64,000 bases of DNA from a virus (Duplodnaviria > Heunggongvirae > Uroviricota > Caudoviricetes > Straboviridae). The notes under the pieces were generated by a model that saw nothing but the letters and a program-made list of their open reading frames with translations, searched no databases and was not told where the DNA came from. Below, piece by piece: positions 17,330 through 43,390 of this stretch. Location of the stretch: the IMG/VR virus record IMGVR_UViG_2706796059_000001; one strand, 5' to 3'. How positions within the stretch are numbered: position 1 is the stretch's first letter; each line of letters opens with the position of its first letter. The position numbers were made by a program, and so were the translations under genes.

Positions 17330-17445
17330 AGCATATTCATGGTATTAAACACGTATTTAATACTAATCATACTAATACTTCTAATATCACTAAAACCACT
17401 AATACTACTAAGATGAGACGGAATTTTTCCGCCTCTTGCCATTTC
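17330..17445. repeat. intergenic element of phased TTAGT/TTAGA motifs plus a 60-bp sequence repeated in inverted orientation at 43280-43390
   Basis: cactaaaaccactaatactactaagatgagacggaatttttccgcc here matches the reverse complement of 43283-43335. Both copies carry 5-7 TTAG(T/A) units at about 9-10 bp spacing. Confidence 0.6.
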
Positions 17446-17461
17446 TTCGCTGCGCTAATAC

Positions 17462-17497
17462 AAAAAAAGGGTGAGAAATCAATCTCACCCGTTTATT
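17462..17497 (-). terminator. rho-independent terminator downstream of gp12a
   Basis: gggtgaga-n-tctcaccc hairpin flanked by an A-run and a T-run. Confidence 0.6.
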
Positions 17498-17530
17498 AGC
17501 ATTGACTTTCAAGCTATAATATGCTTGTCT

Positions 17531-18958
17531 TTATGCAGTTCTTTCCCACATGTAAACAGTATAGTATGGCTGTACGTTATTATGTGGTTGACCACCACCT
17601 TCTGGTGATGAGTAATACAAGTAGTTGTCGTTATCAGTGCGACCTGAACCTGGGTTGCTTCTACCATATTCGTATGCAACTCCAAACCCTAGTCCGTTGC
17701 CACCGTAAGTCCAACGATCACCCCAACCCGCGTGTTTGTGAGTTGGCATTGTTTCTTCAGTTAAGATAACTTCGTATTCACCACCTGTTTGTCTTACGTT
17801 GAATGTTCTACCACCATGTGTACCTTCAGATACAAGCACGCGACCTTCTGCAATTCTAGACCATGTTCCGCCGAATAGCGTAGCTGGTGATGTAGATTCA
17901 AGTGACATGTAAATAGCACCGACAGGGTACATATTCAACATAGCTGATGATTCAATCAGACCATTTGTCATTAACTGAGTACCACTTACAGATTGAACAT
18001 CGTCAATTTTCAATGTACCAGTTACTGTCCCGCCTGAAACCCCAATCTTTTCATTATTCAACTTATAACCCATTGCAGCACTTAGTGCTTGAGTCGCGTC
18101 GTTTGTTGTTAGATTGTTTGCAAGTTTCGCAACACCGACACGTGAGCTAGTCGCAGTGAATAAATCTAATGTACCGACTGTGACTGCATGGTCATTAGAT
18201 GTACGCGCATTTGCAACTGTTGAGTTCGGTAGATAGAAACCTGCCTTTCTCGTAGTTGTCGCTGTGCGTTCATTGAATCGATACGGTGAAATTGCTAGAT
18301 TGTTTTCTGATGCTGATGTGCTGTTTACTTCAGTTGCATTTGCTAATCGAATCAACCCTTTCGTCGTTTCTGTAGCATCTGATGCGGTAGTATTCGCCCA
18401 CACGTCAAGCATTTCCTTAACTCGCTGTGGGGTCATAGCCACACTATTAGACAATGTGCCTGTTGTCGTTGCTTGTGCATATGTCGCTAGCCGTACAGCA
18501 CCCGGCGAAGATTCAGTTGCATAGAAACGAGTATTCAACGCGTAGTTCAATGTTTTAAGCGTGAATGCATGTTTCTGTGCTTCTTCTACTGCGGCTGTCG
18601 GGTCAATGTTATCAATCGTGCTGTTTGTAATCAGCTTCACAAAACCGTATTGAAGTTCTGTTGCAGTCGCGTGATTTTCCATCCAATAATTTAATGCAGA
18701 TGGTGTCACTGCGCTTGTGTTATTAAGCTCATCTGCGACTGCTGCATTATCACTTAACAATGTAATACCCGCGACAGATGTTGATGCTATAGGGTAATCG
18801 GGTAATGGTTGAAGTGCATGAGCTTGTACAAGCTCAAGACACGTTTGGAGATCGTTATTACCCCCAGTAAGACCATCAAAGGAAGTACCTTCGACTTCAA
18901 CTGTAACCGTACCCGCATCGTCAATCACGTGATTGAAAATTTGAGTTCCTTTACTCAT
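17531..18958 (-). CDS. gp12: short tail fibre gp12 paralog A
   Basis: The C-terminal HKHAGWG metal-binding-type motif is as in the T4 gp12 receptor-binding domain. The N-terminal region is Ala/Thr-rich. Length 475 aa. Confidence 0.7.
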   Translation of the reverse strand: MSKGTQIFNHVIDDAGTVTVEVEGTSFDGLTGGNNDLQTCLELVQAHALQPLPDYPIASTSVAGITLLSDNAAVADELNNTSAVTPSALNYWMENHATATELQYGFVKLITNSTIDNIDPTAAVEEAQKHAFTLKTLNYALNTRFYATESSPGAVRLATYAQATTTGTLSNSVAMTPQRVKEMLDVWANTTASDATETTKGLIRLANATEVNSTSASENNLAISPYRFNERTATTTRKAGFYLPNSTVANARTSNDHAVTVGTLDLFTATSSRVGVAKLANNLTTNDATQALSAAMGYKLNNEKIGVSGGTVTGTLKIDDVQSVSGTQLMTNGLIESSAMLNMYPVGAIYMSLESTSPATLFGGTWSRIAEGRVLVSEGTHGGRTFNVRQTGGEYEVILTEETMPTHKHAGWGDRWTYGGNGLGFGVAYEYGRSNPGSGRTDNDNYLYYSSPEGGGQPHNNVQPYYTVYMWERTA

Positions 18959-20493
18959 TTAACTCGTCTCCAAATGTAAACTGGGTAGTATGGCATCATA
19001 TTCTCATGCGGCTCATTACCACCAACTGCTTCGTTGTAATACATGTAATTATCACGATCAGTAGATTTCGAACCGGGATTATTACGCGAACCTGTTATAC
19101 CGAATCTCCAGTAACTGACAGTATTATATTCATCACAAGTATACGTTACACCATACGGACTTCGATGCGTTTCGTAGCGAATACACCCCTCGCGTGAGCC
19201 TGTATATGCTTCACCCCAACCTGCATGTTGGTGTTGTGGTAAATTACTCTCGTATAACTGAACACGGTCGATGTCACTAAACGAACCCGCTGCATAATAT
19301 CTGCGAGTGAACCCATCATCACCGATACCCTGCCCCATCATAGTTCGACCTGCTCTCATCTTATACCATACGCCACCGAAAATCTCATTCGGGTCAACTG
19401 ATGAAGTACAGTGAAAAATACTACCAACAGGGCGCCCTTCAAGACCGATCTTCGCGTCTAATTGATTGTTCGGGAACATTTCCCTCTGCTCTTGAACAGT
19501 TGTGTAATATGTTCCGCCATAACTGCTCTGCTTTTGACGAGAAATGATGTTTGTGTAAATGTTGTCACATTTCAAAACACCCGTAATTGTCCCACCGTCT
19601 GGGCCTAATAGTGTATTCAAATCAACGCCAAGTGCAGCACTTGTTGCTTTTGTTGAGTCGTTTACATACGAGCTTGGTAGTTCAAAGAACCCGTGTTTAG
19701 TCGGTGTCGCTATTAGATTGTCGATTGTACCGGGAGTTATAGCATATTCATCTGAATCGCTTGCATTGCGGTCATAGTTGTTCTGTGTTAATTTGAATGC
19801 ACCACGCTTAGATGTCGTCGCTTTAACGTAATTAAGACCTTTAACTGTAATTGCAATCGAACCGTCTGATTTATACCCGTCTCGTTCTGCTACAGTACGA
19901 AGCACACCCGTGTATGTTTCTGTCGCTTGAGCCCAAGGGTTTGGTATCTCTGCTTTAATTAAGTTCCACGTTCTAAGTGGAGAAATGAATCGGTCAGGGT
20001 TATATGCTAAAGTTTCGCTTAGATTTGCAAACTCAGCAAAACCTTGTGATTCGTTTGTTGTGTCATCTGCTAGTGCATTACGAGTCGTCATCATTTCATT
20101 TAGACGGCGATATGACAGCAAACGACTTGCATCTGATGACGAATATGTTCTTGTCAAATCAGTATTACGCAATTCTTGTAGATTACCTAACTGAGTACTG
20201 GTTGCTGGAGACACGAACTGGTCAACCCCGTCTAGTGACGCTGGTGTGATTACAGTTAATAAGTCGTCAAGTGCATTAGCTTCTGCTTGAGTTGCGTACT
20301 CAACAATACCAACCTCAGTCGTTGTCGCATACGGAAGTGACGGAAGTGGTGCTAATGCGCTATCGTCAAATAGCTCCATTATACTCTGCACATCACCGCC
20401 TGACTCAAACGCTGAACCAGGCGATGTGAAGGGCTGTAGGTAAACATATTGCGCTGCATCACTAGCGTGCGTGAATATGTTTGTTCCTGACAT
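18955..20493 (-). CDS. gp12: short tail fibre gp12 paralog B
   Basis: The C-terminal HQHAGWG motif and the N-terminal MSGTNIFTHASDAA parallel paralog A (MSKGTQIFNHVIDDA). The middle and C-terminus are divergent. Length 512 aa. Confidence 0.7.
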   Translation of the reverse strand: MSGTNIFTHASDAAQYVYLQPFTSPGSAFESGGDVQSIMELFDDSALAPLPSLPYATTTEVGIVEYATQAEANALDDLLTVITPASLDGVDQFVSPATSTQLGNLQELRNTDLTRTYSSSDASRLLSYRRLNEMMTTRNALADDTTNESQGFAEFANLSETLAYNPDRFISPLRTWNLIKAEIPNPWAQATETYTGVLRTVAERDGYKSDGSIAITVKGLNYVKATTSKRGAFKLTQNNYDRNASDSDEYAITPGTIDNLIATPTKHGFFELPSSYVNDSTKATSAALGVDLNTLLGPDGGTITGVLKCDNIYTNIISRQKQSSYGGTYYTTVQEQREMFPNNQLDAKIGLEGRPVGSIFHCTSSVDPNEIFGGVWYKMRAGRTMMGQGIGDDGFTRRYYAAGSFSDIDRVQLYESNLPQHQHAGWGEAYTGSREGCIRYETHRSPYGVTYTCDEYNTVSYWRFGITGSRNNPGSKSTDRDNYMYYNEAVGGNEPHENMMPYYPVYIWRRVK

Positions 20494-42702: not shown

Positions 42703-43238
42703 TGAAAAACTTAACGATGAAGAATAATTTCCGAATCGACATTCCTGATAATAACGCAACTCAAGCGTTTCAGTGGCAGATACAAACTGCCACTATCCCG
42801 GGTGTTACGATGGAAATTGCAAGCATTACTCGTGGTCCGAAGTATGCCAAACTAGCAAATAACCATGTTGCAGGTTCTGGTACATCATATGACGATCTTT
42901 CGATCCAATTCCTAGTCGATGAAGAAATGCGTACGTATGCAGAGCTGTATAGATGGTTGATCACAATGAACAACCCAACAGGTGCTAGTACAAGTGACGG
43001 GATTGTTCCAGTTACTATGCTTCTACATGTTCTAGACAACAACAAAGATAAAATTGTAGCAACATATCGTTTTGTCAATGCATTCCCAAAGTCACTCAGT
43101 GCTGTAGAATGGAACTATACTGAATCTGGTGATGTTGAAGTCGTAACTTGTGATGTCGAATTTGAATACTCATATTTTGAAATGATTCATAAAGTCGATG
43201 GCAAAGAAGAAGTCATAACACCCTATATGGGTTCATAG
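42702..43238 (+). CDS. small tail-tube-fold baseplate protein (gp19/gp48/gp54 superfamily)
   Basis: 178 aa, start overlapping the gp29 stop. Beta-rich with a tail-tube-like pattern. Confidence 0.35.
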   Translation: MKNLTMKNNFRIDIPDNNATQAFQWQIQTATIPGVTMEIASITRGPKYAKLANNHVAGSGTSYDDLSIQFLVDEEMRTYAELYRWLITMNNPTGASTSDGIVPVTMLLHVLDNNKDKIVATYRFVNAFPKSLSAVEWNYTESGDVEVVTCDVEFEYSYFEMIHKVDGKEEVITPYMGS

Positions 43239-43240
43239 AA

Positions 43241-43270
43241 AGCAATTAAGCCCCTTACGGGGCTTTTTTT
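43241..43270 (+). terminator. rho-independent terminator
   Basis: aagcccctt-acg-gggctt hairpin followed by ttttttt. Confidence 0.7.
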
Positions 43271-43279
43271 GTATCTGAA

Positions 43280-43390
43280 TCTAGAGCGAAGCGGCAGAAT
43301 TTGGTGTGAGGCCCAAAAATTGGGCATCATCTTAGTAGTATTAGTAGTTTTAGTGAAGTTAGAGGTATTAGTAATATTAGAGAATAGGCA
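43280..43390. repeat. inverted copy of the 17.3-17.45 kb element with a TTAGT/TTAGA phased array
   Basis: The reverse complement of 43283-43335 matches 17384-17436 with a few substitutions. The following sequence tattagtagttttagtgaagttagaggtattagtaatattagag is TTAG(T/A)-rich. Confidence 0.6.

Follow-up and report, generated by a model that had tools for sequence, protein, structure and literature searches.

A six-copy intergenic module with a hairpin and a 9-bp TTAG array in the KVP40-type vibriophage ValKK3, and its occurrence in Vibrio and Photobacterium islands

The 64,000-nt stretch of DNA analyzed here (the window) comprises bases 149,581-213,580 of Vibrio phage ValKK3 (NC_028829.1), a Schizotequatrovirus and relative of KVP40; window coordinates are ValKK3 record positions minus 149580. 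Two intergenic regions of the window, one between gp12 and wac (site A) and one between gp3 and gp1 (site B), carry a composite element in which a small hairpin is followed by an array of 9-bp units containing TTAG. A repeat search of the window yielded a single outstanding inverted pair, 17363-17435 and 43308-43380 (73 nt, 84% complementarity), and the 30-nt core TCATCTTAGTAGTATTAGTRGTTTTAGTGA was found exactly twice in the window, at 17387-17416 (-) and 43327-43356 (+), with no match in 100 dinucleotide-preserving shuffles when up to 3 mismatches were allowed. The inverted repeat described in the initial annotation is therefore real, although the partner of 17384-17436 lies at approximately 43307-43359 and not at 43283-43335. 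Moreover, the similarity is more than a low-complexity AT-rich run: a GC hairpin whose stem difference is compensated belongs to it, as does, at site B, a GAGCGAAGCG box.

Both sites are located 20-45 nt beyond an intrinsic terminator and are directed at the next gene, wac for site A and the dNMP kinase gene gp1 for site B, in agreement with what had been noted before (Table 1); they are mutually inverted because wac is on the - strand and gp1 on the + strand. In each module, which is approximately 110-150 bp long, the end of the upstream gene or its terminator is followed by the GAGCGAAGCG box, 9-15 variable nt, a GC hairpin of 6-9 bp, the sequence TCATC, 5-6 TTAGNNNNN units and, usually, a sigma-70-like promoter. 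Tandem Repeats Finder placed the period of the array at exactly 9 bp at both window sites, with six units each; the arrays of TTAG(T/A) units initially reported are thus present, with six units rather than 5-7 and a strict 9-bp period rather than a helical spacing of 9-10 bp. The GAGCGAAGCG 10-mer occurs only 3 times in the 248-kb ValKK3 genome, always within an element, while the shorter GCGAAGC 7-mer was rejected as a marker, since it occurs 49 times and only the 10-mer box is element-specific. The hairpin stem reads GG/CC at site A and CC/GG at site B, a double compensatory swap. As this is the one compensated event and 81.5% of cells were paired compared to 77% in shuffles, support for the hairpin is modest. 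The hairpin is not an intrinsic terminator; TCATCTTAGTAG follows the stem, there is no T-run, and it was not called by the terminator scan.

BLAST and pattern searches of the whole ValKK3 genome revealed six copies of the element, two in the window and four outside it, sites A and B being members 4 and 5 of this six-member family. The apparent pairing of two copies around the baseplate block is therefore an accident of the window limits. All six copies are intergenic and co-oriented with the flanking genes and local transcription. An intrinsic terminator precedes four of the six, including both window copies, and a small hairpin is present in all. Six syntenic copies were also found in KVP40, VH7D and nt-1, the last of which represents a different genus (Mylasvirus) with approximately 77-83% identity in these regions, and both window loci are kept in D480, the most distant relative examined. 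Among 51 related records, 4-6 element places were found in each. Alignments of orthologues showed an invariant core and diverged flanking spacers, and the wac copy of nt-1 has lost exactly one 9-bp unit.

Table 1. Features of the two window copies (window coordinates) and positions of the six copies in the ValKK3 genome (kb of the ValKK3 record)
Feature	Position	Strand	Basis
Site A intrinsic terminator following gp12-2 (short fibre), GGGTGAGATTGATTTCTCACCC + T7	17469..17490	-	terminator scan; ValKK3 annotation
Site A degenerate box GCGCAGCGAAG; orthologues in KVP40, nt-1 and D480 read GAGCGAAGCG	17445..17455	-	sequence; orthologue alignment
Site A hairpin GAGGCGGAA-AAA-TTCCGTCTC, 9 pairs, one G.T	17415..17435	-	sequence; present in centroid structure; pair counts
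Site A units TTAGTAGTA TTAGTGGTT TTAGTGATA TTAGAAGTA TTAGTATGA TTAGTATTA, preceded by TCATC at 17412-17416	17358..17411	-	sequence; Tandem Repeats Finder
Site A sigma-70-like promoter past the array, GTTTAA-N18-TATTAT class	17321..17350	-	conserved in orthologues
Site A T4-type late promoter TATAAATA before wac (start codon 17232)	17273..17280	-	sequence; annotation
Site B intrinsic terminator after gp3, AAGCCCCTTACGGGGCTT + T7	43248..43265	+	terminator scan; annotation
Site B box GAGCGAAGCG	43284..43293	+	sequence
Site B hairpin TGAGGCCCAA-AAA-TTGGGCATCA	43307..43329	+	sequence; pair counts
Site B units TTAGTAGTA TTAGTAGTT TTAGTGAAG TTAGAGGTA TTAGTAATA TTAGAGAAT, preceded by TCATC at 43327-43331	43332..43385	+	sequence; Tandem Repeats Finder
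Site B sigma-70-like promoter GTTTAG-N18-TATAAT before gp1 (dNMP kinase, start 43469)	43403..43432	+	conserved in KVP40, nt-1 and D480
Copy between orf126 and orf125	53.0 kb	-	whole-genome search
Copy between SprT-like gene and glutaredoxin gene	98.2 kb	-	whole-genome search
Copy between gp35 and uvsY	140.9 kb	+	whole-genome search
Copy between gp12 and wac (site A)	167.0 kb	-	whole-genome search
Copy between gp3 and gp1 (site B)	192.9 kb	+	whole-genome search
'lipo' copy between orf386 and orf385	245.9 kb	-	whole-genome search

The location of sites A and B at either end of the 26-kb baseplate, short-fibre and hub block had also raised the possibility that they are paired recombination sites for inversion or exchange of this block, and the two copies, being inverted and 84% identical over 73 nt, are long enough for homologous recombination in a T4-like phage. 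Against this stand the presence of six co-oriented copies and the absence of any recombinase, invertase or resolvase among the 390 annotated features of ValKK3 (no profile search of all open reading frames [ORFs] was made). Moreover, 451-nt queries across both flanks of each site found full-length matches in 49 of 51 related genomes, where both junctions are thus intact, and the spacing of approximately 26 kb and the relative orientation were the same in all hit pairs compared (ValKK3, KVP40, nt-1, VH7D, R10Z, phi-Grn1, VS1 and D480). Inversion would, in addition, set late-gene operons against the context of their promoters. The inversion or cassette-swap reading is thus essentially refuted; the element probably serves as a recognition site for the phage's own machinery and not as an inversion switch.

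The array shows strong sequence constraint. In 26 phage copies, every one of the 130 units has TTAG, whereas unit positions 5-9 vary, and the array strand contains only 5 C in 1170 positions. Array GC content is 22-31% compared to 41% for the genome, which corresponds to the 0.2-5th percentile of the ValKK3 genome, and five of the six arrays rank among the longest C-free or G-free (single-base-free) runs in the 248 kb; the array of site B is part of a 57-nt C-free run, tied as the longest in the genome, and across the array of site A the + strand has no G. Invariant TTAG at a strict 9 bp is the pattern that would be expected of a phased recognition site. The suggestion of an iteron-type, protein-binding array or shared regulatory region is consequently supported in outline, by the 9-bp period, the invariant TTAG and the retention of the array across phage genera, though not to the point of identifying a protein that binds it. 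A generic scan of IMG/VR for five TTAG units at a 9-bp period was set aside, as unrelated coding repeats from giant viruses and other sources were among the matches listed.

The element is not confined to phages. A degenerate-core scan of metagenomes identified two contigs whose similarity to the phages is limited to 85-95 bp (87-94% identity); they match no plasmid and carry Thoeris-like genes, a restriction-modification system and parA. A scan of representative bacterial genomes yielded only two chance matches, in Methanobacterium and Erysipelotrichales. Through the metagenome match and the protein homology of the ORF downstream of the element, which has homologues in many Vibrio chromosomes, a family of Vibrio and Photobacterium chromosomal islands of approximately 17 kb was reached. 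These islands are inserted at a peptidase M32 gene, with a 71-aa M32 fragment at the far end (L150-L159, L144 and L145; e.g., L154 2000-19200), and encode a large serine recombinase, a small resolvase, helix-turn-helix (HTH) proteins and variable cargo, i.e., a gp45-like clamp, a gp44-like AAA+ protein, a VapE-like protein with an AAA protein, ParA, or Thoeris with restriction-modification. The sliding-clamp homologue (PF09116) is 44% identical to the phage gp45. PADLOC, PHROGs and Pfam gave no name for the island core proteins.

Six of the eight island variants examined contain one copy of the element, 85-130 bp long and 87-94% identical to the phage copies, and share no other DNA with the phages. 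This copy sits in a 1.4-kb non-coding region with duplicated modules and iterons, between divergent T4-type late promoters; in the two element-less variants the flanking module is single-copy, which looks like an 'empty site'. A search of Rfam with this non-coding region found nothing. The T4-type late promoter TATAAATA precedes each island operon, with 3-4 per island, compared to only 14 exact copies in the entire 248-kb phage genome. Island copies often have a degenerate hairpin but retain the box, CATCATC and the array, and the ORF after the array is not conserved among islands (M-S-Q-F-stop in L154). An island from Photobacterium (L158) matches the wac copy of D480, including box and spacer, and another island (L145) matches the gp1 copy of D480. 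Since different islands match different phage copies, phage-island exchange happened repeatedly. The islands look built to respond to KVP40-type phages, and they may represent a satellite or a defence island tuned to T4-like vibriophages.

Two further observations were made on the islands. First, their conserved non-coding region (L154 8815-9370; L157 approximately 2050-2330; L145 3380-3750) contains a run of short C-GNA-G triloop hairpins (GCGAAGC, GCCGAAGGC, GGGCGAAGCCC, TAGCAC-GTA-GTGCTA and GACTGC-GTA-GCAGTC), to which the phage GAGCGAAGCG box is related. C-GNA-G loops are unusually stable in single-stranded DNA, and by this analogy the hairpins hint at a single-strand priming or origin function. 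Second, a small protein, gp354 (60-66 aa, 40-47% identity), is common to the phages, where its gene is next to asiA, and to some islands (L005 24777-24977; L154 9838-10020; L158 2838-3020); the gp354-like ORF of the islands (60 aa) directly follows a late promoter and a 52-aa ORF with a sigma-70-region-4-like HTH. A by-eye likeness of gp354 to ribbon-helix-helix DNA binders was not borne out by Pfam (no hit), PDB profiles (no ribbon-helix-helix hit) or Foldseek (nothing), and its AlphaFold2 monomer model is all-helical with a predicted local distance difference test (pLDDT) score of 74.

Some of the phage copies are overlapped by annotated ORFs, namely ORF204 of nt-1 (L017 4096-4236) and VPHD480_0430 (L146 526-699) and VPHD480_0404 (L147 533-652) of D480. 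Because the frames are not conserved between orthologues, in which the length of the spacer from box to hairpin changes, these ORFs are judged to be probably spurious calls, enabled by the stop-free frames of a 9-bp repeat. A coding reading of the element also fails on the pattern of variation; the 'Leu' codon is always TTA, and the changes fall at unit positions 5-7 instead of third codon positions.

A function at the RNA level appears improbable. In this case, the hairpin and the unstructured, C-free leader would be present in read-through or intercistronic transcripts and be bound by an RNA-binding protein or by loading ribosomes, as in translational operators of the T4 gene 32 or RegA type. 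The sense orientation of all copies and the one double compensatory change in the hairpin are consistent with such a function, as are the 'lipo' locus of four phages and the metagenomic island copies, where the last unit contains or is directly followed by a start codon and AGGAG lies inside the array. However, four of the six copies are expected to be poorly transcribed because a strong intrinsic terminator precedes them and the next promoter comes only after them, and no conserved ORF follows the array in the islands. Rfam 15 gave no match at E<=1 for site A and, for site B, only a sub-threshold chance match over the terminator. Folding of single sequences had predicted a long A-U/G.U hairpin for the array (z = -2.6 to -3.8), but RNAalifold with 20 distinct copies kept only a 6-bp hairpin, so that self-pairing of the array is not conserved.

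Transcription of the downstream gene offers a close rival to the explanation proposed below. A sigma-70-like promoter is found 0-30 nt after the array in five of the six copies; four of these promoters are of the class GTTTA(A/G)-N18-TATAAT and the orf125 copy has TTGACA-N17-TACTAT, whereas the 'lipo' copy has none. A phage or host transcription factor on the phased TTAG units could activate, repress or insulate these promoters (gp1, uvsY, glutaredoxin, wac and orf125) at the junction of temporal classes, and the islands could have copied a timing signal, much as satellite P4 shares activator sites of P2. The sixth unit extends into the -35-like hexamer at two loci, glutaredoxin and uvsY, an arrangement kept in KVP40 and nt-1, and the orientation of the array is always that of transcription. 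Moreover, the gp1 and uvsY sites have a late structural gene upstream and an early- or middle-type gene downstream, with timing inferred from T4. We consider such an upstream control array possible but somewhat doubtful, as the distance from array to promoter varies from 48 to 76 nt between loci. Distances of 48/49, 60 and 71 nt in ValKK3 had suggested helical phasing of the array to the promoter, but this is broken by the gp1 orthologues (68, 71, 72 and 74 nt); the lack of a fixed distance argues that the module is autonomous. In addition, no credible sigma-70 promoter follows the array in the 'lipo' and island copies, the array is missing at most GTTTA(A/G)-N18-TATAAT promoters, and a conserved composite of 75-130 nt with even spacing around the genome exceeds the usual needs of an operator. 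The GTTTA(A/G)-N18-TATAAT class itself occurs approximately 13 times in ValKK3 (e.g., 43403-43432, 17321-17350 and 43882-43911), in intergenic and gene-oriented positions, often directly after a stop codon. Only four of these sites come after a TTAG array, and the class may represent the middle-type promoter of the KVP40-type phage group.

Comparison of copies within and between genomes revealed that paralogues are often nearest neighbours. The wac copy of ValKK3 is 0.958 identical to the uvsY copy of the same phage versus 0.930 to the wac copy of VH7D, a phage nearly identical to ValKK3 overall, and the orf125 copy of ValKK3 and VH7D shares both box and CC/GG hairpin with the gp1 copy, whereas the orf125 copy of KVP40 has neither. 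These patterns support gene conversion between copies. The gp126 protein of ValKK3 and VH7D ends in ...KKNKKSEAK-stop and that of KVP40 in ...KKNKKEQ-stop (L002 approximately 3037-3060 versus L141); it appears that conversion of the element altered the C-terminal end of this upstream protein. Between ValKK3 and nt-1, 10 of the 12 element flanks are syntenic, and the two exceptions are gene indels flush with the element; one is an additional ORF403 upstream of the orf125 copy, the other the presence or absence of a lipoprotein gene directly after the 'lipo' array.

These data could also indicate a recombination module with no dedicated trans-acting factor, similar to the PeSL (early promoter and stem-loop) cassettes, that is homogenized by homologous recombination or gene conversion and serves as portable homology for cassette shuffling and phage-island exchange. 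The flush indels, the gene conversion and the match of island variants to different phage copies are all consistent with such a module, and PeSLs have been described for the very pair nt-1 and KVP40 (PMC4122927). It is nevertheless an unlikely explanation taken by itself, since homogenization alone leaves unexplained why TTAG is unchanged in every unit next to five freely varying bases, why six positions are syntenic across genera and why units change in 9-bp steps; the window copies, furthermore, lie in the conserved structural core with both flanks syntenic between ValKK3 and nt-1.

Around the circular map, the six copies are separated by gaps of 45, 43, 26, 26, 53 and 55 kb. This spacing is more even than random (P(min gap >= observed) = 0.007; P(sd <= observed) = 0.005), with the same result for nt-1, in a post hoc test that was conceived after the positions had been seen; the unusually even spacing is therefore suggestive.

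Taken together, the evidence points to an autonomous cis-acting site that would be read by a factor present in infection. As a tentative first choice among the explanations considered, we propose that the module is a DNA-level landing pad tied to the initiation of replication or recombination, i.e., origin-like and hence a point of clamp loading, where both the binding of a protein and the job of the site are what we infer. The infection-time factor would recognize the invariant TTAG every 9 bp beside the hairpin, on easily melted DNA with a C-less strand, and the six sites would be entry points of the replication and recombination machinery, either as origin-like sites or for recombination-dependent replication, and hence for clamp loading. 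Recombination would be expected to be frequent at such entry sites, and hot spots of this kind would account for the observed conversion between copies. T4 origins are said, in the title of a 1985 paper by Kreuzer and Alberts, to coincide with recombination hot spots. By taking up one copy, the islands would become visible to the same phage machinery; at minimum, the island copy would provide homology to six places in the phage genome.

The proposal of a landing pad is based on the even spacing, the easily melted and strand-asymmetric array by a GC hairpin, the large conserved composite and the hot-spot behaviour, as well as on the copy at uvsY, which is the oriF locus in T4, and the location of the element, in islands with clamp or clamp-loader homologues, between divergent late promoters. 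T4 has at least five origins around its genome, one of them at uvsY, and an A+T-rich unwinding element is part of the minimal T4 origin, which measures approximately 100 bp. During infection, plasmids were replicated into concatemers if they had a T4 origin or even just homology to T4 (PMC3016281). T4 late promoters are activated by the DNA-loaded clamp (PMC2988020).

Several points, in addition to the post hoc nature of the spacing test, weigh against a role in initiation. The 9-bp period is unlike the 17-22 bp of classical iterons, no protein was identified that binds the array, and no initiator gene is adjacent, the window neighbours being gp12/wac and gp3/gp1. Apart from one DnaA box (TTWTNCACA) approximately 170 bp from the 'lipo' copy, none was found within 300 bp of the six copies, and there is no clustering of GATC near the elements. 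The promoter 0-30 nt after five of the six copies, with the last unit merged into the -35 region at two loci, fits transcription equally well, and one phage locus and some island copies have a start codon at the end of the array. As to the islands, the hairpin is degenerate in several of their copies, and they could use the element merely as homology, in which case they would be uninformative on its job in the phage. Finally, T4 origins share no motif, and the A+T-rich element of T4 oriF and oriG is downstream of the promoter (PMC3016281), whereas the array is upstream of it in all five promoter-bearing copies.

A more specific and rather unlikely extension of the landing-pad proposal is that the six modules are sites of replication start and of loading of the sliding clamp, which in turn licenses late transcription, and that an undescribed family of islands has pirated one of them. 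On infection by a T4-like phage, such an island would be replicated and switched on, and perhaps also transduced. If true, T4-type phages would gain a sequence-defined, shared origin motif, which T4 lacks, and a satellite-like partner of a T4-like virulent phage would be revealed. How T4-type phages choose their replication starts is a question to which T4 gives no common motif as an answer (PMC3016281), and a six-copy, evenly spaced, genus-spanning and sequence-defined module represents a concrete and easily mutated candidate for a replication start in the KVP40 group. Even if it is transcriptional, the module is the most conserved non-coding sequence noticed in these genomes, and the island copy points to an uncharacterized phage-island relationship. 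Aquaculture phage therapy is being considered for the hosts of broad-host-range vibriophages, so that defence or gene transfer by such islands would matter in practice. No description of the module or of its presence in islands with T4-type late promoters was found in the searchable literature (an exact-sequence search, PMC4122927 and the Schizotequatrovirus genomics paper), a scope that does not extend to the original KVP40 genome paper (Miller 2003). Dispersed intergenic repeats, iterons and sites shared between satellite and helper are known kinds of elements.

Further features of the window were also noted. ARAGORN identified 26 tRNA genes clustered at 46766-54586, and the retrieved feature table of the record lists coding sequences only. 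Two 44-nt direct repeats in this cluster (49469-49512 and 49553-49596; 91% identical and 84 nt apart) may be duplicated promoters, since each holds TTTACA...TACAAT-like hexamers. A 54-nt tandem duplication (45234-45344; 2.0 copies, 83% match) lies between a gp57B-like gene and the tRNA cluster, and tandem repeats with a 24-nt period (8 codons) at 33885-33989, inside the baseplate hub/tail lysozyme gene, most likely encode a repeated peptide motif.

Among known systems, the PeSL and PmSL cassettes of T4-like phages, on which Arbiol reportedly published in 2010, resemble the module in several respects. Like the module, they are dispersed, intergenic and co-oriented, have a stem-loop or terminator by a promoter, are tied to recombination or cassette exchange, and occur in the same phage group, as described for nt-1 versus KVP40 (PMC4122927). 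A PeSL is defined by a stem-loop, an early promoter TTGYVH-N17-TAWWAT and a Shine-Dalgarno sequence, and PeSLs are present in large numbers, chiefly in hyperplastic regions (Comeau, Arbiol & Krisch 2014, PMC4122927). A stem-loop or terminator does precede the promoter of the element, with an intrinsic terminator ahead of both window copies and of four of the six genome copies and the small hairpin in all, but the 9-bp TTAG array is absent from the PeSL description, and the promoters are mostly of another class or absent; the window copies have TTAATA-N16-TATTAT and TTTAGA-N17-TATAAT (GTTTAR class), and TTGACA-N17-TACTAT is found only in the orf125 copy. Instead of many copies next to indels in hyperplastic regions, there are six fixed, syntenic copies, some of them in the structural core, with indels at 2 of 12 flanks. 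The element therefore falls outside the PeSL definition on promoter type, copy number and location.

T4 origins (oriF and oriG, which use an R-loop, and oriE) share with the module the presence of several sites around a circularly permuted genome, one of them at uvsY, a unit size of approximately 100 bp and an A+T-rich stretch by a promoter, and the 12-nt 'iterons' of oriE are direct repeats that are conserved in relatives and have no assigned role (PMC3016281). T4 origins differ in having no common motif and an unwinding element downstream of a MotA promoter, whereas the module has an identical motif six times, upstream of the promoter; in none of the five promoter-bearing copies does the promoter transcribe into a downstream A+T-rich element, as it does at oriF and oriG. 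Tandem direct repeats, as in iteron origins, are present (9 bp, 5-6 units), but helically phased repeats of 17-22 bp, an adjacent initiator gene and DnaA boxes are not.

Ribbon-helix-helix proteins are known to bind tandem sites, such as the heptads of pSM19035 omega, the 8-bp met boxes of MetJ and the parC site of R1 ParR. These operators and centromeres are similar to the module in that head-to-tail units of 7-11 bp form arrays of 2-10 upstream of promoters and at several places per replicon, and in those systems they are read cooperatively; here, by contrast, no cognate protein was found, and the gp354-like protein gave no detectable ribbon-helix-helix signal in the profile and structure comparisons described above. 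The DnaA-trio consists of TAG/TAA trios beside a GC cluster and DnaA boxes. In-phase TAG triplets by a GC hairpin are present in the module, and DnaA boxes are absent within 300 bp of five of the six copies, which places it outside that definition. Mycobacteriophage stoperators, single sites of 13-14 bp that number 20-30 per genome and are recognized by the immunity repressor of temperate phages, are likewise asymmetric sites in short intergenic regions near gene ends, with an orientation tied to transcription, whereas the element described here is a composite of 75-130 bp with six copies in a virulent phage. As for invertible segments of the Hin, Gin and Cin type, the two window copies are inverted but are two of six, no invertase is annotated, both junctions are intact in 49 of the 51 records, and a single orientation was seen in all hit pairs compared.

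The islands, finally, can be compared to satellites that use cis-acting sites of their helper (the late promoters and cos of P4/P2; PICI, PLE and PICMI), in which a short helper sequence is likewise found in an otherwise unrelated integrated element; T4-type late promoters and homologues of phage replication proteins are further components of the islands described here. PICMIs have a different set of core genes and insert beside fis (PMC10803314). The present islands differ in having a serine recombinase, insertion at a peptidase M32 gene and a variable, defence-like cargo.

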